Virus record (IMG/VR): IMGVR_UViG_3300049187_000025
Span: 1-48,119 of that record
Source of the DNA: a virus
Taxonomy: Duplodnaviria > Caudoviricetes
Direction: 5' to 3' (one strand)
DNA: 48,119 nt
A program made the position numbers and the translations under genes. Numbering within the stretch: position 1 is the stretch's first letter; each line of letters starts with the position of its first letter. A model generated the notes under the pieces. That model had not been told where the DNA came from, ran no database searches, and was given only the letters and a program-made list of their open reading frames with translations. Of this stretch, positions 8,426 through 45,835 are shown piece after piece.

Positions 8426-8764
8426 TCAGCGCCCTGCCCGTGGCATCCCGAACCCGCCATCCTCGGCGACCGTCTTGCGGTCATGGCATGCCTTGCACAG
8501 GCTCTGCCAGTTGTCGCGGTCCCAGAACAGGGTCAGGTCGCCACCATGTGGCACCTTGTGGTCGACCACGTTGGCTTCGGTGATCCTGTCCTGCTTGGTG
8601 CAGTGGACGCACAGAGGGTGCTTGGCTAGGTGCTGCTTGCGCTCCTTGCGCCAGCGGTAGCCGTATAGCATGTTCTTGTCGGCCTGGGTGACGACCGGGG
8701 CGGGGCCTCGGCGTGTGGGGTCAGCCTCGCGGATGCGGGGCTTGAGGGTGGTGAGTCGGCCCAT
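8426..8764 (-). CDS. HNH endonuclease, terminase-associated (HK97 gp74-like)
   Basis: HPLCVHC...VVDHKVPHGGD...NWQSLCKACHDRKT; immediately upstream of terS. Confidence 0.93.
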   Translation of the reverse strand: MGRLTTLKPRIREADPTRRGPAPVVTQADKNMLYGYRWRKERKQHLAKHPLCVHCTKQDRITEANVVDHKVPHGGDLTLFWDRDNWQSLCKACHDRKTVAEDGGFGMPRAGR

Positions 8765-8772
8765 CGGTCTTA

Positions 8773-8896
8773 CAGGGCTTGCCCTGCTAGGTCGTGCCGT
8801 CCGCTGAACCGCTCATGCGACCGCAGGCAGCGTGCGTGGAGATGACCGCGCCCTTTAGCCCGGGGACGCGCCCAGCGCATGACTGGGTTTCAGCGG
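8773..8896 (-). ncRNA. Candidate structured intergenic RNA
   Basis: 8801-8819 pairs with 8876-8896 (ccgctgaacc/gggtttcagcgg and tcatgcg/cgcatga) around two inner hairpins; separate palindrome cagggcttgccctg at 8773-8786. Confidence 0.4.
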
Positions 8897-8906
8897 GGTG
8901 GAGGGG

Positions 8907-9266
8907 CTAGAGCGAGAACCGCGCTCTGAAGTTACACGGCCATCCAGTCTTGTCGACCGGCATGGAGTCGACGATCACGTAAACGGCGTCTTCGACCCCG
9001 AAGGCCGCGTGAGCCTGGATTCCGAACTTCGGCGGCTCATCCTGTTCGAAGTCGTGCAGCACGAGTCCGCCGGAGAACAACTTGCGAATCGCGAGGCCGC
9101 CAGTGCCGCTGAACTTCAGGCCGAAGGAGGCGGAGTAGTTGAAGGTCCCATCGGGGTGCTCGACCTCGGTGAGTTGGCCGCCCTTCATGAAGATCAGGTC
9201 ACCGGCCAGCGTCATGGCGCACGCGGCGGCAGGCTTCAGGAGTTCGCTGGTGATCATGCTCTCCAC
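8907..9266 (-). CDS. Stand-alone paralog of the tail-tip protein N-terminal domain
   Basis: Colinear similarity to the N-terminus of 36458..39646, e.g. YVIVDSMPVDKTGWPCNF vs YLVFDAMPVEKTGWPCNF. Confidence 0.8.
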   Translation of the reverse strand: MESMITSELLKPAAACAMTLAGDLIFMKGGQLTEVEHPDGTFNYSASFGLKFSGTGGLAIRKLFSGGLVLHDFEQDEPPKFGIQAHAAFGVEDAVYVIVDSMPVDKTGWPCNFRARFSL

Positions 9267-9667
9267 TTTCCAAAGGGTGCGACGACCATGAGGCCAGCCG
9301 TGTCGGGGAGCGATTCGATCAGGAGCGGCGCCTGGATGGCTGCGGGCTTGGGTTGTGCCGGGCCGTCACGGCGGATCATTGCGGCGTTGGGGTCGATGAT
9401 CGAAAACCAACGGAGCACATCGGAGACGTCGACCGCGTCGTCGCGCTTTGGCGCCTCATAGACCAGGGTGCGGCCCATCCAGATACTCCGCACGCCCTGG
9501 ACATTCTGCACGCCTTCGTTGAAGTAGGCGGAGTCAGGGGCGGCCTGGAGAACGGTAGGCTCCGGCGGATAGCGCGTCCCGTCAGCGTCGAGGGAGCCGC
9601 CGAAGACTGGGCTTGGGCCCAGGCTGTCAGGGCCGCTGAACATCCGGAGGATTTCCTCATTCGTCAT
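9254..9667 (-). CDS. Hypothetical protein, first gene after the late-leader terminator
   Basis: ORF with AGGGG RBS, overlapping the next gene; contains GVRSIWMGRTLVYE. Confidence 0.7.
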   Translation of the reverse strand: MTNEEILRMFSGPDSLGPSPVFGGSLDADGTRYPPEPTVLQAAPDSAYFNEGVQNVQGVRSIWMGRTLVYEAPKRDDAVDVSDVLRWFSIIDPNAAMIRRDGPAQPKPAAIQAPLLIESLPDTAGLMVVAPFGKWRA

Positions 9668-9679
9668 CTTCGACCCCTG

Positions 9680-9712
9680 AAATGAAGAAGCCCGCTGCGT
9701 GGCGGGCTTTCT
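9680..9712 (-). terminator. Intrinsic terminator, tR'-like
   Basis: Stem aagcccgc/gcgggctt followed by cttcattt on the minus strand. Confidence 0.7.
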
Positions 9713-9830
9713 GGTGGCACCTCTGCCCTGAAGGGCTCAGCGTCTGGCGCTGTTGACCGGCGATCCGGTTCGCGAATTCACCCTGTGAGGACGCACCTGG
9801 CAGGGCGGGGCAAGGTTGAGGATGCGCCGG

Positions 9831-9839
9831 ATTATGGCA
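9831..9839 (-). promoter_or_regulatory. Putative late promoter (extended -10, TGcCATAAT)
   Basis: TGnCATAAT on the minus strand ~120 nt upstream of a terminator, as in lambda pR'/tR'; no good -35 at 17 bp. Confidence 0.5.
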
Positions 9840-9851
9840 CAGGCTGGATTT

Positions 9852-10133
9852 TCATTCCCTCGCCTCGTGCTGCACACATCCGAAGTCAGGCATCGTCACC
9901 AGCCTCGCCATGTACTGGCTTCCGTCCTCGACAACGGCCAAGACGCCAGCGCACGCGGGCTTCAGCCGGAGGCGCGTGTCTTCGTTGTACCAGTTCTCCT
10001 GACCCTCCGGGCCGGCTTCCTCCGTCGCCTCCCATATTGGGAGCGCGGCAGTGCAATGACCAGCGCCGCGAAGCGTGAGCGTTTCGTCAGGTAGTGGTGC
10101 CCAGTGCTTGCATGTCTTGCAGCGTTCCATCAC
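9852..10133 (-). CDS. Hypothetical Cys-rich protein
   Basis: CKTCKHW...GHC...DFGCVQH; overlaps the upstream gene's stop. Confidence 0.7.
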   Translation of the reverse strand: MMERCKTCKHWAPLPDETLTLRGAGHCTAALPIWEATEEAGPEGQENWYNEDTRLRLKPACAGVLAVVEDGSQYMARLVTMPDFGCVQHEARE

Positions 10134-10324
10134 AGAACTTGGCCCGCTATCGCGGCATCCAGAGCCGACTCATGCGGCGACCCAGCGAATATACGCCGCA
10201 GCGTGCGCACCATGGCGCCAAAGCGCTTGTAGCCCTCGCCGCCGTTGGCCACTTTCTTGCCGTTGCGCGCGATGAGCGTCCAGGCCCAGTCGCCGGAAGC
10301 GTTGCGGTAGAGGTGGAATTTCAT
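10130..10324 (-). CDS. DUF1508/YegP-family small protein
   Basis: MKFHLYRNASGDWAWTLIARNGKKVANGGEGY. Confidence 0.8.
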   Translation of the reverse strand: MKFHLYRNASGDWAWTLIARNGKKVANGGEGYKRFGAMVRTLRRIFAGSPHESALDAAIAGQVL

Positions 10325-10626
10325 GATTCTGCTCCAGTTGTCTCGCGGGTCGTCACGCTTTCTTCGCACTCGCCCTCGTCTTCGTCTTCCACCGGATTAA
10401 TGATGATCATGTCGGGCCCGATGACGATCTTGCTGGCGCGGTGCTCGATGATTTCCATCTCGTACCCGTCGTTTCGCCCGGTGAACTCACCATAGGCTGG
10501 AATCGCATCGTCGACCCAGACCACTCTCCTGAGCACCCGGCACAACTCTGCGTGGTAAACGATGGCGCGGTAGTGTCCCTCTCTTGCGTCTAGCCTCATG
10601 AGTACGTCGCTCCTTCTACGCTTCAT
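10321..10626 (-). CDS. Hypothetical protein
   Basis: ORF coupled to its neighbours; start uncertain (10626 or 10599). Confidence 0.6.
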   Translation of the reverse strand: MKRRRSDVLMRLDAREGHYRAIVYHAELCRVLRRVVWVDDAIPAYGEFTGRNDGYEMEIIEHRASKIVIGPDMIIINPVEDEDEGECEESVTTRETTGAES

Positions 10627-11353
10627 CGCGCAACGCCGCGCGCAAGCATTTCTCGGCATCCGTCATCCGGCGCGAGAGTTCGATCAGCATCCGGCTTGCG
10701 AGGTGGCGTTCCTCGGGGGTATGGCCGACATCATCGCGCCGGTGGCCCGACCCGTGGCAGACCCGGCAGATCATCTGCCGCTCGCCGCGGTGCGCGCCGC
10801 CGTTGAAGCCGCGGCCCTCGCAGGGTGGGCAGGTTGGGTCGAGGAACACGTCGAGCACACGACCGGTGAGGTGCATCAGGTCGGTGATGTCGAAAGGCAC
10901 CGGATAGGCGCTGGCAAGGCTCACCGCCAGCTCACCAATCCACTGCTTGGCACTGGCCAGGGACGTGAGCTGCAGCAGCACCATGGCGCGACCTGTGACG
11001 ATCTCTCGGCGGGCTTCGTCGCCCAGGCTCTTGTGCAGCGCTTGGGCCTTGTCGAAAGCCTCGGTGTCCTTCTTCCCGGCTTGGCGCAGCGCATCCAACA
11101 CCTTGGCCGCCTGCCGCTGGGCATCGTACAGCCGGGCAGCCTCGGCCTCGTACAAGGCCTTCTCGCCTCGCGCCCTGTCGTACTCGCCCACCAGCCGGAA
11201 CAGCAGCATGCCGAGAGATTCGGGCACGAACGCCGCAGCTCCGACCACATCCAGATCCCCGCGCACGCCGCAGCGGGTGGGCTTGAGGTTGCTTGACTGC
11301 GTGGCGCGCTGGTAGGTTTCCTGCACGGATGGGCGGTCTTCGGTATCGGTCAC
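10616..11353 (-). CDS. Q-like late antiterminator with DnaJ-type zinc finger
   Basis: DPTCPPCEGRG...ICRVCHGSG (two CxxCxGxG); located at the end of the nin-like region before the late promoter. Confidence 0.65.
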   Translation of the reverse strand: MTDTEDRPSVQETYQRATQSSNLKPTRCGVRGDLDVVGAAAFVPESLGMLLFRLVGEYDRARGEKALYEAEAARLYDAQRQAAKVLDALRQAGKKDTEAFDKAQALHKSLGDEARREIVTGRAMVLLQLTSLASAKQWIGELAVSLASAYPVPFDITDLMHLTGRVLDVFLDPTCPPCEGRGFNGGAHRGERQMICRVCHGSGHRRDDVGHTPEERHLASRMLIELSRRMTDAEKCLRAALRDEA

Positions 11354-18541: not shown

Positions 18542-18751
18542 TTACTTGAACCACTGCGGGAAGCGCTGGATCATCACCATCAGTTTGCCCGCTGGGATGT
18601 GCTCGTCCTTCACCCACTGCACGACGGCCTGACGGGTCACCCCCATCACTTCGGCGAGTTTGTCCTGGGTGCCGCCGGCCAACTCGATGGCTCGCGTGGG
18701 TGTCATGCCACTGACGGCGGCGGATGAAATGTCGGGTCGGCGCTTGTTCAT
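18542..18751 (-). CDS. Cro-like HTH regulator
   Basis: AIELAGGTQDKLAEVMGVTRQAVVQWVKDEHIP; first gene of the leftward operon (alternative internal start at MTPTRAI). Confidence 0.85.
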   Translation of the reverse strand: MNKRRPDISSAAVSGMTPTRAIELAGGTQDKLAEVMGVTRQAVVQWVKDEHIPAGKLMVMIQRFPQWFK

Positions 18752-18758
18752 GTGACGC

Positions 18759-18787
18759 AGTCTAGACGAAAGCGCGGGTGACTGCAA
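18759..18787 (-). promoter_or_regulatory. Sigma70-type promoter, leftward
   Basis: TTGCAG-17 bp-TAGACT; predicted start site is at or next to the ATG at 18751. Confidence 0.65.
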
Positions 18788-18794
18788 GAAATCC

Positions 18795-18823
18795 TTGCGC
18801 TCCGGTTTCGGAAGGTCTACAGT
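18795..18823 (+). promoter_or_regulatory. Sigma70-type promoter, rightward
   Basis: TTGCGC-17 bp-TACAGT upstream of the GGAGG RBS and ATG at 18852. Confidence 0.65.
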
Positions 18824-18851
18824 ACATCCATCGAACACACCGGAGGCCCTG

Positions 18852-19127
18852 ATGAACACCGACACCACCGAAGCCCTGCGCGCAATCCGCGCCCTGCACT
18901 GCGACCCGGATGCAGTTGCAACGCTGCTCTCGGCGATCGAGACGCAGTACGGGCAGTGGCTGCAGGACCAAGACCTGATCGGCCAGGACCGCACCGGCTA
19001 CGGCACGCTTCTCGACGCTTACGAGCAGATCAGCGACATGGCCGACTGGCACTCGGGCGCGGTTCGCGCTGCGGCGAGGCATCCGCTGTCGTCGATCGAG
19101 CGGGCTGTGCTGGGAGAGCGGGCATGA
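18852..19127 (+). CDS. Hypothetical protein, first gene of the rightward early operon
   Basis: ATG after GGAGG; ATGA overlap with the next gene. Confidence 0.75.
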   Translation: MNTDTTEALRAIRALHCDPDAVATLLSAIETQYGQWLQDQDLIGQDRTGYGTLLDAYEQISDMADWHSGAVRAAARHPLSSIERAVLGERA

Positions 19128-28379: not shown

Positions 28380-29174
28380 GCAGACACGGACACCGCGCAG
28401 TACCACGGGTACCGCATCGGCCGCTGGCTCGAGGGCCGGCGCGCTTCGGAAACTCGAGAAGTGGCCGCCGCGATCGTTCAAGACCTGACCGGGGTCTATG
28501 CCCCAGCCACCATCAATCGCAGCCTTGGCGCCCTGAAAAAGGCCCTGCGCATGGCCTGGGAGCGCGGCCGGGTGCCGGTCGACTACAGCGGCCTGGTCAA
28601 GCGCCTGCCCGAGAACAACCAGAAGACCCAGGTTCTGACCATCGAGCAGGCGCGCCTGCTGGCCGATTGCTCGAGCGAGCCGGTGCGTGCGGCCATCTGG
28701 ATCGGCCTGCTGACCGGCTGCCGGCGCGGCGAGGTCTGCAAGATCAAGCTCGAGGACATTGGCGCCGACGTGCTGCGGATCGAAGCCGGCAACACCAAGA
28801 CCCTGCGGTACCGGGAGGTGCCGATCGTGCCGGCGCTGCGGCCGTGGCTCGAGCATCTGCCGCTGCCGATCACGTTCGAAGGGGTCAAGTCGGGAATTCG
28901 AAGGGCTCGAGTCAAGGCCGGGCTGCCGGGGATCGGGTTCCACATCCTGCGCCACTCGTGCGCAACGATCCTGCTGGCGCCGCCGATCAATGCCCCGCTG
29001 CACGTCGTGCGGGAGATCCTCGGGCACTCGAGCATCAGGACGACCGAGCGCTACGCCCATGTGCTGAGCGCGCCGCAAAGGACAGCCCTCGAGGGGCTCG
29101 GCGCTGCCGTAGATTCCACCGGGGTTTACACCGGAGCCCCCGATGAGGGGGATGATCTGAGGCTAAGTGCTTGA
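28380..29174 (+). pseudogene. int: Tyrosine integrase, core-binding and catalytic part
   Basis: APATINRSL, TGCRRGE (R), NTKT (K), HILRH (HxxR), LGH, TERY (Y); frame is open back to the inversion junction. Confidence 0.9.
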
Positions 29175-34847: not shown

Positions 34848-36461
34848 TTATGAGCGAACGAAATAGATCGACGCAGCGAAGTTCGCCAGCGTCGCGTCAG
34901 GCGAGGCGGGCGCCCAGAAGGTGAGGTAGTCGGTGCCGCCGGTCAGCGTGAAGCCAGAGGCCGCAATGAACGTCGGCACCGTGCCGGCGGCGGCCCATCG
35001 AATCGTCCCGACGCTGGTGCCGTTGGCCGACGTGGTCGCGTTCTTGCGGACGTCGATGTCGGTCTGTGCCGTTGCCGCAGTCAAGGCCTTGCCCGATGAC
35101 CCGGCGAGCGCAGCAGCAGCGGTGAGCGTCGTGATGCCAGCCGGCGCAGGGAAGATGCCGAGCAATTGGCTGGCAGTGGGCACACCGGGGAAGAACGGGA
35201 TGACGACGGTCGGCTGGTCGGACCACGCGGGATTCGCGCCTGCCCCGCCAGTTCTCAACTCCTGGCCCGCGGTGCCAGCCCCTAGGCGAGTCCAGCCCGT
35301 GGCGTCTCGGATGAGGATATCGCCCTGCGCCGAGCTGGCGATGAAGTTGAGCACCTCGGCGACGGTGCATTCCTCGAAGTCGCCTGAGCCGGCAGTCTTG
35401 CGGGCCAGGACGCGGGCGGTGGCCGAGGCGTTCTGCAGCTTGGCGTAGGTGACCGCGTCGTTCGCGATGCCAAGCGAGCCGCCGGAAAGCGACAGGTCAG
35501 AACCGGCCGCGATCTCTTCAATCGCGCCGGTCGATGCTGTGGTGCGGCCTAGCAGCTTGGCCGTGGCCATCGTCAGGCCGCTCGTCGTCACCGGGCCTTC
35601 CGTGCGCCCTTGGAACGAGATGGAGACGGCCTTGTTGTCGACGATGCTGCCGCCGTTGGCCATCAGCGTCAGGGACGTGAACTTGTAGTAGCCGCTGCCA
35701 GCGGTGGGCGCGGCGCCCCACTTCCAAAGCTGCCACTTCGTCGCGTCGTCTTCCTGCGCGAGGTGGATGTAGCCAACCTGTGGCAGCGAGGCGAAGTAGG
35801 TCGTCAGGCTGACACCGGCAGCGGTCTGGTTGTCGATGTAGAGTTCGGTCGCGCTGGCCTGCGTGGCGTTGTTCCACTTGAACAGGCCATTGCCGGGATC
35901 GCTGTCGGCAGTGCTCCCCGTGTCGCTGGTGTAGACCTCGTCGGTGTCGGCGTCGGTCGTGGCGCTGAGCGTAGCGATCGCGGCGCCAGCCTCCTGCAGC
36001 ACGGCCTCGACATCGGTGCCAGTCCAATACGTGCCAACGTCGACCACTGACACATCAGCCGCAGTGACCGCGCCGAGCACGGCTGAGGCGGTGTCGAAGA
36101 TGCCGGCCGGGCTCAGACGCTCGTCGTTCCACGCCGTCAGCACGCCAGCAGCAAAGACGACGCTTGCGATGCGTCCGTAGTTGACGGCGTCATCCCAATT
36201 CGTTGTTGCAGTGCTGACGCTGGCCACCAGCGTGCCGCGATGAACGACGATGTAATTCGTGTCGTCGTCGGTGCAAGCGAGCGTGTCGTCAGCGACCGTC
36301 GTCTCGTCGAAGTTGCCGCCCGCCAGGCCCACGGTGAGACCGGTGTCGGCCGTCACATCGTGAGCCCAGATGAAGGCCTGCCCGAGGGCGGCCATGTTCT
36401 CGTTCAGTTGCACCTCGGCCAGGGCGGCCGGGGGCGAACTGATCTGCTGCGGGGTGCTCAT
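34848..36461 (-). CDS. Tail fibre / receptor-binding protein
   Basis: Follows the tail-tip gene; Ala/Thr/Gly-rich with LLGRTTASTGAIEEI, NDAVTYAKLQ and QGDILIR...WTRLGAGTAGQ fibre motifs. Confidence 0.75.
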   Translation of the reverse strand: MSTPQQISSPPAALAEVQLNENMAALGQAFIWAHDVTADTGLTVGLAGGNFDETTVADDTLACTDDDTNYIVVHRGTLVASVSTATTNWDDAVNYGRIASVVFAAGVLTAWNDERLSPAGIFDTASAVLGAVTAADVSVVDVGTYWTGTDVEAVLQEAGAAIATLSATTDADTDEVYTSDTGSTADSDPGNGLFKWNNATQASATELYIDNQTAAGVSLTTYFASLPQVGYIHLAQEDDATKWQLWKWGAAPTAGSGYYKFTSLTLMANGGSIVDNKAVSISFQGRTEGPVTTSGLTMATAKLLGRTTASTGAIEEIAAGSDLSLSGGSLGIANDAVTYAKLQNASATARVLARKTAGSGDFEECTVAEVLNFIASSAQGDILIRDATGWTRLGAGTAGQELRTGGAGANPAWSDQPTVVIPFFPGVPTASQLLGIFPAPAGITTLTAAAALAGSSGKALTAATAQTDIDVRKNATTSANGTSVGTIRWAAAGTVPTFIAASGFTLTGGTDYLTFWAPASPDATLANFAASIYFVRS

Positions 36462-39400
36462 GCTGTCGCCTCAAGAAGGTGTCCGCGCCCTACTGTTTCG
36501 CTCATGGCGTACACGCGGGCGGTGATGGGGTCGCCCGGCGTCAGGCCGTCGGCGGTCTGGTCGGCTGCGCTGTAGGCCGCCTCATTGGTGGCAACGGTGA
36601 TCGTGCGAACGATGGTCACGCCGTCGAGGATGTCGACCTCGTAAGCCTCGCTGTCCTCGCCGAGCGGTGGCACGATGCCTTCAGCCAGGAAGCGATAGGA
36701 CAACCGCGAGCGGCGGCGCCATGTCAGCGTGGCGTCATCAGTTCCGACCTCGCGCGCGACGCGGAAGTCGACCGGTGACAGCGGCTTCAAGCGCTCGGCG
36801 GCGATCGTCACCTCTTCGCTGTCGGTGTCACTCAGCGTGGAGCCGATCGAAACGGCTTTGGTGAGCGTCGGGACACCGATCTCACTGGCCTCGATGGCGA
36901 AGTCGCGCAAGGTCGAGGTCGAGAGCAGGACGACTTCGTCACCCACAGCATGCCCAGCCATGGCCCACTCGCTGCCGAGCCGGCCGCGGAGGAATCCGGT
37001 CAGGGTGTAGCTGCCGTCAGCGTTCGTGGTGACGTTCCGGTACTGCAGGATCTCCCAGCCGTCGCCGGAGCGCACCGCAGCGCCGTTGCCGCCGGCCAGG
37101 ACCGCGTCGCGCGTGGCGCTGAAGGGTGTGCCGTTGCGCATGCGCACGGTGAGCGATGTGAACTCGTCGAAGACGTTGCCGCCGCTGAAGTCGCCGAGCA
37201 CGTCGACTGCCGTGCCGATGGAGACGCCGGGTCGCGGGAAAGTGGCCATCGCCCGCCACGAAACGCCCAGGTCCAGGCTTCGATACAGGATGCCGCCGCG
37301 CCAGTGCGGAGCGATGCCCCAGGCTGCCGCGTAGGCCCCCGGCGTGTCGTCAGCATCGGACAACAGCGGGACGTCGAGAAATACCGCGTAGGTCGGCACG
37401 CTGATCGGCGGAACCTGATCGGGGAAACTGCCCACCACGCCGATGCCGTATTGCGTCAAGACCGAAGCGTCGTCGCTGATCCCTTCCCACTTGATCACGC
37501 CGGCCGAGGTGTCGCGGGTGGTGATGAGCGCCCGCTCGCCATCCAGCAGCACGACATCGCCCGGCATTACGCGCGTGAATCGCTTGTCGGTGGCAAAGCT
37601 GATCTGGTTGCGCGCCGCCCAGGAGTCGTACATCAGCAGGTTGGCCAGCCGGAGCTGTTCGTCCGCATCGAGAACCGCCGCGGTCTGGAACTTTCCGACC
37701 TGCCCTGCGCTGGCTGCCTGGCGCTGGGAGAACTGGGTGCCGGCCTGATAGTCGCGCCCGGGGTCCGGAGCGGTGACGCTGTACTGGCTCGGCAGGTCAA
37801 GCTGCTGCGCTCTGACCTTTGTGATCGATGCAGCCTGGCTGCCGTCTTCTGTCGCTCCGCACTCGACGCGCTCGATGACCGCCACCGGATCGGCACCGCG
37901 CATCTTGAAGCGCAGCAGGTCGTCTTCCTCGACGCCGACGAAGCTGTAGACCTGGGCGAGTTGCTGGATGGCAGGCCTCGCTGGACCTACCTGAGACACC
38001 AGATAGCCGCGCAGCGTCTGGTCTAGCTGAGAGACGTCAACATCCGCGGCTTGGAGGTTGGAGCGCTCCGACAGATCGCGCACGCATGCACCGACGGTCG
38101 TTCCGAAGTATGTGAAGGCCCACGGCTGGTAGTTGCCAAGGACGAAGACGCGACCTGTCGTCGTAGTGTCAGGATAGAAATCCACCACACCAAGCCGCAG
38201 TCTGTCCGGATCGGTCACTTCGTCGTAAGCAGCCTTTACTTCAAGCGTTTCAGCGTCGATGGCCGCGATTTGCACATAGCCGACTAAAGCGGCTAGTTTC
38301 AGTATGCAATCCGTACTCGCGTCATATGTCACGCCGAGGTTGATTCCATCCGTATAGCCGGTGGTGACAGCCGTTATGACAGGGCTTGTGCTGTCCGTGA
38401 CAGTGAAGCACTCGTCGTCGTCTGAGTTGAAGACGACGTACCGGCGTCGCATGGGGTCATATGCCGCCGCGCACGTCGGCAACGCATGGCCCGGGACATT
38501 CCCGACGATGGCATCCATCGCCTCGAACCCGACCACGTAATCGAGCCCGATGTAGCCGCACCGCTCAGCGTTAATGATGTCGGTGCCAGACAGCCCGGCA
38601 CCAGCCAGCACGACGTTCTGTCCGCCAGCGCGCACCCATTGCGCGTTTGGTCGGTGGAACACGCGCTGACGAACAGGGTCCCACACCATGCAGGAGGTGC
38701 CACCAAACATCGCACCGTTGAAAAAATCACCAAGGTATGCAAGGCTGGTCGCGTCGAACCGCAGTACGTTGTCATCGGTGCCGGCGATCCACACCTCGTT
38801 CAGCGGCGGCACATAGCAAACGTGCGAATCTTCGATCCCGCCATCTGCTGTTAGGTCGTGGTCCACTGACAGGACGATCGCTCCCGTCTGCTGGTCAAGA
38901 ACAGATAGGCGCAGGACGCCGCCGAGCTGCTGGGCGCCGATGATGTTGCCGTCCAGGCGCTGCGTCGAAGCGAACCACTGTTCCTCCTGCTCAACGCCGA
39001 GCTCTTCTTCGGTGATGTCGAACTCTCCATCACTCACGAGTTCGACCGTGAAGTTGCAAGGCCAGCCTGTCTTCTCAACTGGCATCGCGTCGAAGACCAG
39101 ATACGAGTAACCGCGATATGCAGGCGTCAACCCGACGCCCTTCTCCGCCTCCATAAGCGGATCAGGAAGCTGGTCCTCTGAGCCGCGGTAGAACGTGAGC
39201 CCGAAGTTAGGCAAGACCGAATCGATCAGGCCACCGTCATAGAGCAGCATCGCTCCGGCCCAGATGCGACGCACGGAGCGCGATGGCGTCTGGCTCAACA
39301 GCAGCGCAAAGGTCGCTGTGTAGGTGTAGATCGTGGTCGACTGCGCCGGCTGACCTGACTTGCCGCCGGTCTCGTCGGTGTCGGACGTCTCTGTGAGGGC

Positions 39401-39646
39401 ATCGCCCAACAGCCAGATGATGTTGCCGCTTATCCGATTGCTGCCGTAGGCGAACGGTATCGCCGTGCCGAAGGAACTCGTGAGGAGCTTGCGGTCCTCC
39501 AGGCGCGGCCCGAAAGCGTCCGGCAGCGTGTCGAGGCTGGCGCCGAGGTAGGAGCCAATGCCACCGCCGATGGCCGCGCCGACCGGCCCGAAGTAGGAGC
39601 CGAGCGCCTGTCCGACGATCGACAGGATCTGCTGATTGCTGCTCAT
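36458..39646 (-). CDS. Tail tip / host-specificity protein (GTA-type)
   Basis: GPRLED...IPFAYGSNRISGNIIW, PAYRGYSYLVF, EILQY, LTGFLRGRLGSE...HAVGD, WRRRSR, YEVDI. Confidence 0.9.
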   Translation of the reverse strand: MSSNQQILSIVGQALGSYFGPVGAAIGGGIGSYLGASLDTLPDAFGPRLEDRKLLTSSFGTAIPFAYGSNRISGNIIWLLGDALTETSDTDETGGKSGQPAQSTTIYTYTATFALLLSQTPSRSVRRIWAGAMLLYDGGLIDSVLPNFGLTFYRGSEDQLPDPLMEAEKGVGLTPAYRGYSYLVFDAMPVEKTGWPCNFTVELVSDGEFDITEEELGVEQEEQWFASTQRLDGNIIGAQQLGGVLRLSVLDQQTGAIVLSVDHDLTADGGIEDSHVCYVPPLNEVWIAGTDDNVLRFDATSLAYLGDFFNGAMFGGTSCMVWDPVRQRVFHRPNAQWVRAGGQNVVLAGAGLSGTDIINAERCGYIGLDYVVGFEAMDAIVGNVPGHALPTCAAAYDPMRRRYVVFNSDDDECFTVTDSTSPVITAVTTGYTDGINLGVTYDASTDCILKLAALVGYVQIAAIDAETLEVKAAYDEVTDPDRLRLGVVDFYPDTTTTGRVFVLGNYQPWAFTYFGTTVGACVRDLSERSNLQAADVDVSQLDQTLRGYLVSQVGPARPAIQQLAQVYSFVGVEEDDLLRFKMRGADPVAVIERVECGATEDGSQAASITKVRAQQLDLPSQYSVTAPDPGRDYQAGTQFSQRQAASAGQVGKFQTAAVLDADEQLRLANLLMYDSWAARNQISFATDKRFTRVMPGDVVLLDGERALITTRDTSAGVIKWEGISDDASVLTQYGIGVVGSFPDQVPPISVPTYAVFLDVPLLSDADDTPGAYAAAWGIAPHWRGGILYRSLDLGVSWRAMATFPRPGVSIGTAVDVLGDFSGGNVFDEFTSLTVRMRNGTPFSATRDAVLAGGNGAAVRSGDGWEILQYRNVTTNADGSYTLTGFLRGRLGSEWAMAGHAVGDEVVLLSTSTLRDFAIEASEIGVPTLTKAVSIGSTLSDTDSEEVTIAAERLKPLSPVDFRVAREVGTDDATLTWRRRSRLSYRFLAEGIVPPLGEDSEAYEVDILDGVTIVRTITVATNEAAYSAADQTADGLTPGDPITARVYAMSETVGRGHLLEATA

Positions 39647-40086
39647 GGGTATGTCACGCCAGGCAGGCGGTAGAGCTCGACGATCGCGGCGATCCAGTGA
39701 GACGTCATGCGGTGCTCACAAACGCCGCCGGCCTTGACGTTGCCGTGGATGAGCGAGACGCCGTCGCGGTAGTCGCCAACGAAGCCGACGTGGTGCGGAT
39801 TCAGGCCAATGCGCAGCGCGACCGCATGGCCGGGGCGAGGCGTGGTGCCCACCGGTTCGGCGATCAGGAAACGGCGCATGCCGGCCAGGAGTTCCTTACC
39901 GTCAGGCAGGCGCCCATAGGAGGCGTCATCCGGCACCGTGCACCCGACGCGCCGGCCGACCTCCACCAGGAGGCCGAGGCAGTCCAGCCCGGCATCGGCC
40001 CGGCGACCCTGGTGCACCCACTTGACGCGCAGGAGCGATCGCGCCGCGGCGACCACATCCGCGGCGGTTGGAGCTTCGACGGTCAT
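39643..40086 (-). CDS. NlpC/P60-family tail peptidase
   Basis: WVHQGR...GLDCLGL, HHVG, LIH. Confidence 0.9.
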   Translation of the reverse strand: MTVEAPTAADVVAAARSLLRVKWVHQGRRADAGLDCLGLLVEVGRRVGCTVPDDASYGRLPDGKELLAGMRRFLIAEPVGTTPRPGHAVALRIGLNPHHVGFVGDYRDGVSLIHGNVKAGGVCEHRMTSHWIAAIVELYRLPGVTYP

Positions 40087-40982
40087 TCGGTGGGCTGGTG
40101 CTGGCCGGGCGTCTTCATGGTCGCGTCCAGACCAGGAAGGAAGTCGAAGCCACGGAAGTTGATGACGTTGCCGAAGCGCGGTCCGCACATGCCGGCGCGA
40201 GACTTGGTGCAGCCGGCCACGATGATGAAGGTGTCCCCGGGGGAGATTGGATCGGCCATGGGCAGATGGAGCTCGACGCGGCCATCGATGGTGTAGTGCT
40301 TCACGTCCATCCGCAGGCCCGTGTTGGCTCCGGTGTTCCAGGTCAGGACGCCGTCGTCGAAGTAGGCGAGGTCCGGCGCGCCGGTCGTGTCGGGCGTCAG
40401 GCGAACGATGGCCGCGGACAGGTCGGTGTCGAAAACGCGCTGGTCGGTCTCGGCTGCCGTCACCGTGCCGGTGGTGGTGTAGTCGGTCAGCACGACCTTG
40501 CAGCGCGCGTCCCCGAGCTGCGCGGTGCAGCCCGGCCCGGTCACCTCGCCGATGGAGGCATTCAGGGAAGCGGCGAGGCCGCGGAACTCAGAGGTGTAGC
40601 CGTTGTCGGCCACGGTGATCTGGCCGAGCCGCCCACGCTTGGCCTTGAGCACGCCCATCGACGTATCGGCCCAGTTGATCTCCATGAGCCGCACGTCGGC
40701 GTGATCCCAGACCCCGCCGGCCACGTCGACGGCGGTCAGCGTGCCGCTTGAGAGGAAACCGGTCACGTCCAGGTTGTCGACGGACAGGTTCGATCCCTGC
40801 TGGATGTTGCTGGCCGAGATGCCGAGGTCTGCCCTGTAACGCAGGCCGGCGTAGATGATGTCCTCGTCGTGGTCGGTGAAGCCGTAGATGCGCCCGTCTT
40901 CGCGGGTAACCTTCCACAGCCGCGCCAGCGTGGTGAACCGCCGCGTGACGTGCGCCGCGAGCGCGGAGGATGCCGAGCGCAT
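40083..40982 (-). CDS. DUF2163/BR0599-family tail hub protein
   Basis: TTLARLWKVTREDG...GFTDHD, CTAQLGDARC, AGCTKS...C...RFGNVINFRGF. Confidence 0.92.
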   Translation of the reverse strand: MRSASSALAAHVTRRFTTLARLWKVTREDGRIYGFTDHDEDIIYAGLRYRADLGISASNIQQGSNLSVDNLDVTGFLSSGTLTAVDVAGGVWDHADVRLMEINWADTSMGVLKAKRGRLGQITVADNGYTSEFRGLAASLNASIGEVTGPGCTAQLGDARCKVVLTDYTTTGTVTAAETDQRVFDTDLSAAIVRLTPDTTGAPDLAYFDDGVLTWNTGANTGLRMDVKHYTIDGRVELHLPMADPISPGDTFIIVAGCTKSRAGMCGPRFGNVINFRGFDFLPGLDATMKTPGQHQPTE

Positions 40983-45175: not shown

Positions 45176-45835
45176 TCAGCCGGCCTGGTCGTAGGGCGCC
45201 CCGGTGTTGCGGATGGTGATGGACCCGGTCCACAGGCCATCAGTCGAGGCCTGCTCGCCAGTCTGTTGAACGAAGCCCAACAGGGTGCGGATACCGCCCG
45301 CCTTGGGCAGCGTCACCTTGACAGCCATCTTGTCGCCGGACTGGTCGAAGTCGGCCATCGCCGACTGGATCGCGGTTTGTGGCGCGAAGAAGAAGTCCAA
45401 CTGGGTGGTGCCGAAGTCCGGCAGGCCGAGCTCGTACTCCTTCGCCGTCGAGCACAGGCTGGTGGCGTCGTTCTCGGTCTTGCTGCCGCCCTGCCGGTTG
45501 TAGCCGGTGAGTTCGCAGAAGTTGGAGAACGTCGCCTTGTCGATCGAGCCGTGTGACACGTAGGTGCCGTAGTTGCTCGAATCGGTGTCCACCAGCTCGA
45601 AGGTGCTGCTGGTCAGCACGTTGACGATGAAGACGTCGTCGTTGAGCTCGGTCATCCCGAGGATGCCGGACAACTTGACGACATCTCCGTCCGCGAGGCC
45701 GTGGCCCGTGCAGGTCACGACGGCGGGGTTCGCCTTCGTGATCGCCGTGATCGCCTTGGAGGGCGAGTCGGCGCCGTACTCGGTGACGATGGCGATCGTC
45801 GAGCCATTGAACTTGAAACGCTTGCCCGCACTCAT
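45176..45835 (-). CDS. Major tail (tube) protein with an inserted small beta domain
   Basis: DATSLCSTAKEYELGLPDFG; ITAITKANPAVVTCTGHGLADGD insert; AAAGGAG RBS. Confidence 0.88.
   Translation of the reverse strand: MSAGKRFKFNGSTIAIVTEYGADSPSKAITAITKANPAVVTCTGHGLADGDVVKLSGILGMTELNDDVFIVNVLTSSTFELVDTDSSNYGTYVSHGSIDKATFSNFCELTGYNRQGGSKTENDATSLCSTAKEYELGLPDFGTTQLDFFFAPQTAIQSAMADFDQSGDKMAVKVTLPKAGGIRTLLGFVQQTGEQASTDGLWTGSITIRNTGAPYDQAG

Follow-up and report, generated by a model that had tools for sequence, protein, structure and literature searches.

A short gene beside the packaging module of a tailed phage (Duplodnaviria; Caudoviricetes) is a stripped copy of the N-terminal domain of the same phage's tail tip, and our tentative interpretation, drawn from sequence and from analogy with known systems, is that it may act as a late-made, assembly-dead decoy for host or prophage defenses that sense or block new tail tips. 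The stretch analyzed here, referred to as the window, is the whole of IMG/VR record IMGVR_UViG_3300049187_000025 (48,119 bases, 73% complete by CheckV, from soil-type runs); coordinates are collected in Table 1. The open reading frame (ORF) of this gene, which we call mini, had been given as encoding 119 residues (8907..9266) in a preliminary description; the frame is real, but its actual start is at 9257, giving 116 residues. The same description had taken the protein for a miniature of the phage's own tail-tip N-terminal domain, and this was borne out: mini is homologous to the part of the phage's megatron-type tail tip that spans residues 64-199 (E 3e-16), the structure models of mini and tip alike find their best fold match in the adhesin-like domain of a megatron tail tip, and a tree joins the two with full support. 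By sequence, model fold match, and tree, mini thus qualifies as an adhesin-like N-terminal beta domain of the Rcc01698-type megatron.

The copy has lost what surrounds this domain in the parent. The alignment begins at tip residue ~55-64, and the iris/penetration helices of the first ~45 residues are absent, with no N-terminal helices in the mini model compared to H4-35 in the tip model; a domain search also found neither the central (PF13550) nor the C-terminal (PF23666) domain of the megatron tip. Within the domain, 6 of the 21 family-conserved columns (those conserved in at least 90% of the rows of a 17-row alignment) are kept, 6 are deleted, and 9 are different, and the conserved loop residues of the N-terminal domain are mostly gone, with the megatron family profile giving mini 6.3 bits; searches of mini against Pfam, PHROG, and PADLOC returned no match. 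The deletions nevertheless preserve the reading frame and the strand pattern of the parent domain. Through its own tip, mini is homologous to residues 47-229 of g15/Rcc01698 of RcGTA (PDB 6TBA/6TEH) and residues 46-211 of the R4C megatron (PDB 8GTC), from which it differs in being free-standing, 116 residues long, devoid of the iris, central, and fiber-binding domains and of the conserved loops, and encoded outside the tail module in the same genome as a full-length tip.

On the evidence of alignment scores and tree topology, mini is a copy that arose within its own tip lineage and has changed fast since. Its alignment scores are 148 with its own tip and 150 with the tip of a relative, P0004 (71% identical to the tip of this phage), compared to 24-61 with 43 other family members, and a tblastn search with mini at E 1 against 21 other tip loci gave no match. 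The tree groups mini with these two tips (support 100/100), leaving the branching order within the trio unsettled, and assigns mini a branch of 3.05 changes per column compared to 0.16 for the tip.

How selection has acted on this copy bears on the main rival explanation, which is that mini is a duplicated piece of the tip, either in drift now that selection is relaxed or turned to some unrelated use, and carried by recombination at a module boundary. In the best-conserved block of 18 codons, 13 of 18 residues are identical to the tip (dN 0.13, dS 2.62), so the differences there are mostly synonymous, as the preliminary description had noted, whereas the other 98 codons give dN 0.84 and dS 1.04, that is, a dN/dS of ~0.8; these estimates come from a single mini allele, with an uncertain alignment and silent sites near saturation, and a within-family dN/dS is precluded because no second intact copy was found. 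We simulated neutral decay down to mini's identity (2000 runs; substitutions only, no indels, an assumed 66% GC). The open frame outlasted this decay in 11% of the runs, and intactness alone therefore proves little, but a block as well conserved as mini's arose in only 1.6% (P 0.016), and its third-position GC content (GC3, 0.84) was attained in 1 run of 2000. Codon adaptation points the same way: at 0.638, mini falls among the values of real genes (whose 5th percentile is 0.548) and above its parent region in the tip (0.557), whereas none of 3000 wrong-frame stretches exceeded 0.459. Drift thus has in its favor the near-neutral ratio outside the block, the very long branch, the survival of the frame in some neutral runs, and the status of mini as an orphan missing from sibling alleles; against it stand the block retained despite saturated silent sites, the codon adaptation exceeding that of the parent, the frame- and strand-preserving deletions, and a clean start, coupled to the stop of the ORF upstream. 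We consider drift unlikely, and this single allele suggests that the gene is live and that one of its surfaces is constrained. The mark of a decaying duplicate that had been named in advance, a dN/dS near 1 together with a lack of intact homologues, is partly seen, in the ratio of ~0.8 outside the block and in that no other intact copy was found.

Mini is an optional gene. Four soil runs (X3, X4, X5, and X6) were compared at its locus, X5 being without coverage there; mini is present in X3, and a bridging contig skips it in X4 and in X6. In X6, the 23 replacement bases give the upstream ORF precisely the ending seen in homologue P0137, and a third type of ending occurs at this position in P0008; the last codons of the upstream ORF differ between mini-bearing and mini-less alleles. 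In X4, the bridging contig (depth 17) is identical to the window over 9282-10798 and then carries a different HNH allele. X4 also has tip DNA spanning 37700-40128 with 0 differences over 2429 bases (depth 13.7), and although the two X4 contigs are unlinked, they likely come from the same phage. A separate observation is that X4 shows a module swap at the 8804 junction, where the same upstream region is joined to the other HNH allele, ~88% alike.

The finding of a mini-less bridging contig together with an identical tail-tip N terminus in X4 argues against a required chaperone, and weakens the proposal of the preliminary description that mini is a dedicated chaperone or placeholder. The wider version of this idea, an optional virion component or a chaperone or placeholder for the tip during folding, agrees with the late position and with the ability of the domain to stand alone, as in the 304-aa N-terminal piece of Xanthomonas phage Langgrundblatt1 and about seven proteins of 195-198 aa. 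It is nevertheless quite improbable: the only bridging contig of X4 is mini-less, mini lies outside the tail module, a short second megatron copy was absent from all 11 records of other megatron phages (the window serving as positive control), and the stand-alone N-terminal pieces still have the iris, with family-profile scores of 140-160 bits compared to 6 for mini. The idea that related phages might carry a mini-gene co-varying with their own tip gained no support, with no intact second homologue of mini in our homologue searches.

Other megatron phages do carry extra or separate copies of the same domain, but of a different kind. The three inspected records with two tip matches, those of CcrColossus (L111; gp122/gp123), Kikimora (L112), and XM05 (L113), each have two full-length megatron genes in one tail operon. 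In Langgrundblatt1 (L128:25745-29804), the tail tip is accompanied by an N-terminal piece encoded as a gene of its own (BL10045). These duplicated or split megatrons are full-length tandem copies or tail-operon pieces that keep the family signature, from which mini differs. The proteins of 195-198 aa (P0084, P0125, P0129, P0130, P0132, P0135, and P0136) end 4-5 residues past the domain and could be either split genes or stand-alone duplicates. About 23 extra match places were seen among 112 phage records.

The surroundings of mini suggest when it would be made. Its start is translationally coupled to the stop of the upstream ORF, on the same strand as the late genes. In lambda, the late region has a promoter-terminator layout, which the arrangement of a candidate −10 element, a terminator-like hairpin, and a candidate Q gene resembles here. 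The terminator search of the region found 2 hairpins compared to 1.7 expected by chance, the extended −10 pattern gave 1 match compared to 0.17 expected but was picked after the site was seen, and a PHROG search of the candidate Q gene gave no match. From these consensus matches, we infer that mini would be the second late gene, ahead of the packaging and tail genes. As to the upstream ORF itself, comparison with P0137 shows constant ends and a swapped middle, and a short block of it resembles hub residues 183-212, at a level within chance after family-wise control.

This setting also bears on the possibility that mini poisons or modulates assembly, either by dominant-negative entry into the baseplates of co-infecting relatives, in the manner of Tai or Tab, or by tuning the phage's own tail initiation. 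We think this improbable. Whereas tab is read from the opposite strand under a promoter of its own (PMC10884400), mini lies on the late-gene strand with a coupled start, and no promoter was found between the terminator-like hairpin and mini; coupling to the first gene after the probable late terminator argues against a prophage-expressed inhibitor, and the earlier suggestion of an inhibitor of competing phages is weakened. Moreover, mini resembles its own tip just as closely, which would expose the phage's own tails to the same effect, and the conserved loops are gone.

Of the functions initially suggested, a decoy fits best, although it is inferred. Mini would be transcribed at the start of the late operon, before any tail gene; its deletions would leave it unable to join the baseplate, and so, we propose, harmless to the assembly of the phage's own tails; and the loop at tip residues 182-199, a candidate displayed epitope that mini has kept, may be the surface read by a defense protein, which mini could then soak up before it senses or blocks freshly made tips. 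The patchy presence of mini might be explained if it is of benefit only in hosts with that defense.

Known systems offer partial parallels. Tail-tip proteins trigger HepS while monomeric, and HepS binds J during its synthesis (PMC13043305); Tai targets the tail-tip protein J (PMC11364771); a ubiquitin-like system is reported to modify the central tail fiber (10.1101/2023.09.04.556158); and the baseplate hub, which is the megatron's partner in solved tails (PMC7296036), is given as an open possibility for sensing (10.64898/2026.01.04.697583). On the phage side, atiEcA (PMC11364771) and anti-Tab (PMC10884400) are two counter-defense genes of the late operon that lie beside the packaging genes. 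Like mini, AtiEcA (phi80 orf64) and anti-Tab (JBD26 gene 30) are encoded by small late-strand genes at this module; they are non-essential and protect the phage's own tail assembly. They adjoin, and their products bind, a cognate opposite-strand defense gene product, whereas no cognate defense gene was found beside mini, where the opposite-strand ORFs score negative on a codon model; and, unlike mini, they are not described as tail-protein copies in the sections consulted. DSAD1 (anti-DSR2) blocks DSR2 through mimicry of the tail tube protein, filling the sensor pocket (PMC10973363), and the proposed mini decoy would be a tail-trigger mimic of like kind. We found no phage decoy paralogous to its own tail tip in the literature, of which our coverage is incomplete and whose supplements could list one.

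Several points weigh against a decoy: (i) no defense system is known to sense the tail-tip N-terminal beta domain, and escape mutations for HepS and Tai fall in the C-terminal part of J-type tips (PMC13043305, PMC11364771); (ii) mini has no known binding partner, and PADLOC gave 0 relevant matches among 39 proteins of the 73%-complete record; (iii) the block kept in mini is lineage-specific, whereas a broad sensor ought rather to recognize conserved surfaces; (iv) most of mini evolves nearly freely, on a long branch, with a frame that neutral decay can leave open and with no intact second homologue; and (v) the late timing is deduced from consensus matches and a putative Q gene. One further alternative, a soluble adhesin-like domain freed at lysis that mops up surface debris which triggers or inactivates new virions, takes its appeal from the name of the parent domain and from the proposal that the baseplate binds sugars (PMC7296036); the excerpt of that report demonstrates no binding by the adhesin-like domain, our analysis adds no support, and we regard this as very improbable.

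If mini is a decoy, self-derived mini-copies would hint at the virion surfaces that bacteria sense, and the 18-residue block could serve as bait for fishing out an unknown defense protein. Somewhat more doubtful is the general proposition that phages create decoys from a duplicated domain of their own lineage's tip, which drops the assembly parts, retains the loop that is sensed, and is put at the head of the late operon to saturate defenses before real tips are made; were it true, the conserved block would map the epitope of an undescribed defense system. Such copies may be widely missed among the "hypothetical" genes of phages because family profiles are blind to them (6 bits for mini) and only self-comparison of the genome shows them.

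Table 1. Features of the window discussed in the text
Feature	Position	Strand	Remarks
Mini gene	8907..9257	-	116 aa; reduced version of the tail tip's N-terminal beta (adhesin-like) domain
Part of tail-tip gene copied by mini	39050..39457	-	Residues 64-199; sequence alignment
Best-conserved block	8927..8977	-	Mini ~93-110, tip 182-199; loop between the last two strands; lineage-specific
Variable cassette	8899..9278	.	23 other bases in its place in X6 contig
Replaced stretch in X4 contig	8805-9281		130 other bases substituted
Upstream ORF	9254..9667	-	137 aa, no assigned family; stop overlaps mini start
Intrinsic-terminator-like hairpin	9688..9709	-	Ends ~20 bases before upstream ORF start; putatively tR'-like position
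Extended −10 match, candidate late promoter	9831..9839	-	~120 bases before the hairpin; sole match in the window
Candidate Q-type late antiterminator	10616..11353	-	Position and weak zinc-finger match (E 0.0046, short of cut-off)
HNH endonuclease	8426..8764	-	First packaging-module gene; then small and large terminase, 8342-6103
Full-length megatron-type tail tip	36458..39646	-	1062 aa with PF13550 and PF23666; homologues: RcGTA g15 and R4C megatron
Baseplate hub	40083..40982	-	PF09931, PF09356

The phage itself has a lambdoid layout, with an integrase, a Cro-like regulator, Erf, and an exonuclease, and a tail end of the gene transfer agent (GTA) type, consisting of a DUF2460 distal tail protein, a PF09931/PF09356 hub, a peptidase-like gene, and the 1062-aa tip, whose N terminus matches the megatrons of R4C (E 6e-20) and RcGTA (E 2e-18). 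At 18545-18852 and 28461-29174, the integrase ORF spans the catalytic part only, and no cI-like gene was found in the interval from the Cro-like gene to the divergent early genes. Directly after the portal gene lies a gene for a collagen-repeat protein (1231-2217, − strand), whose C terminus matches the extension present in some families of portal proteins; next comes a sialyltransferase-like gene (611-1231, − strand). The tail tube protein (45176-45835, − strand) carries an N-terminal E1_FCCH-like domain (PF16190, E 4e-15).
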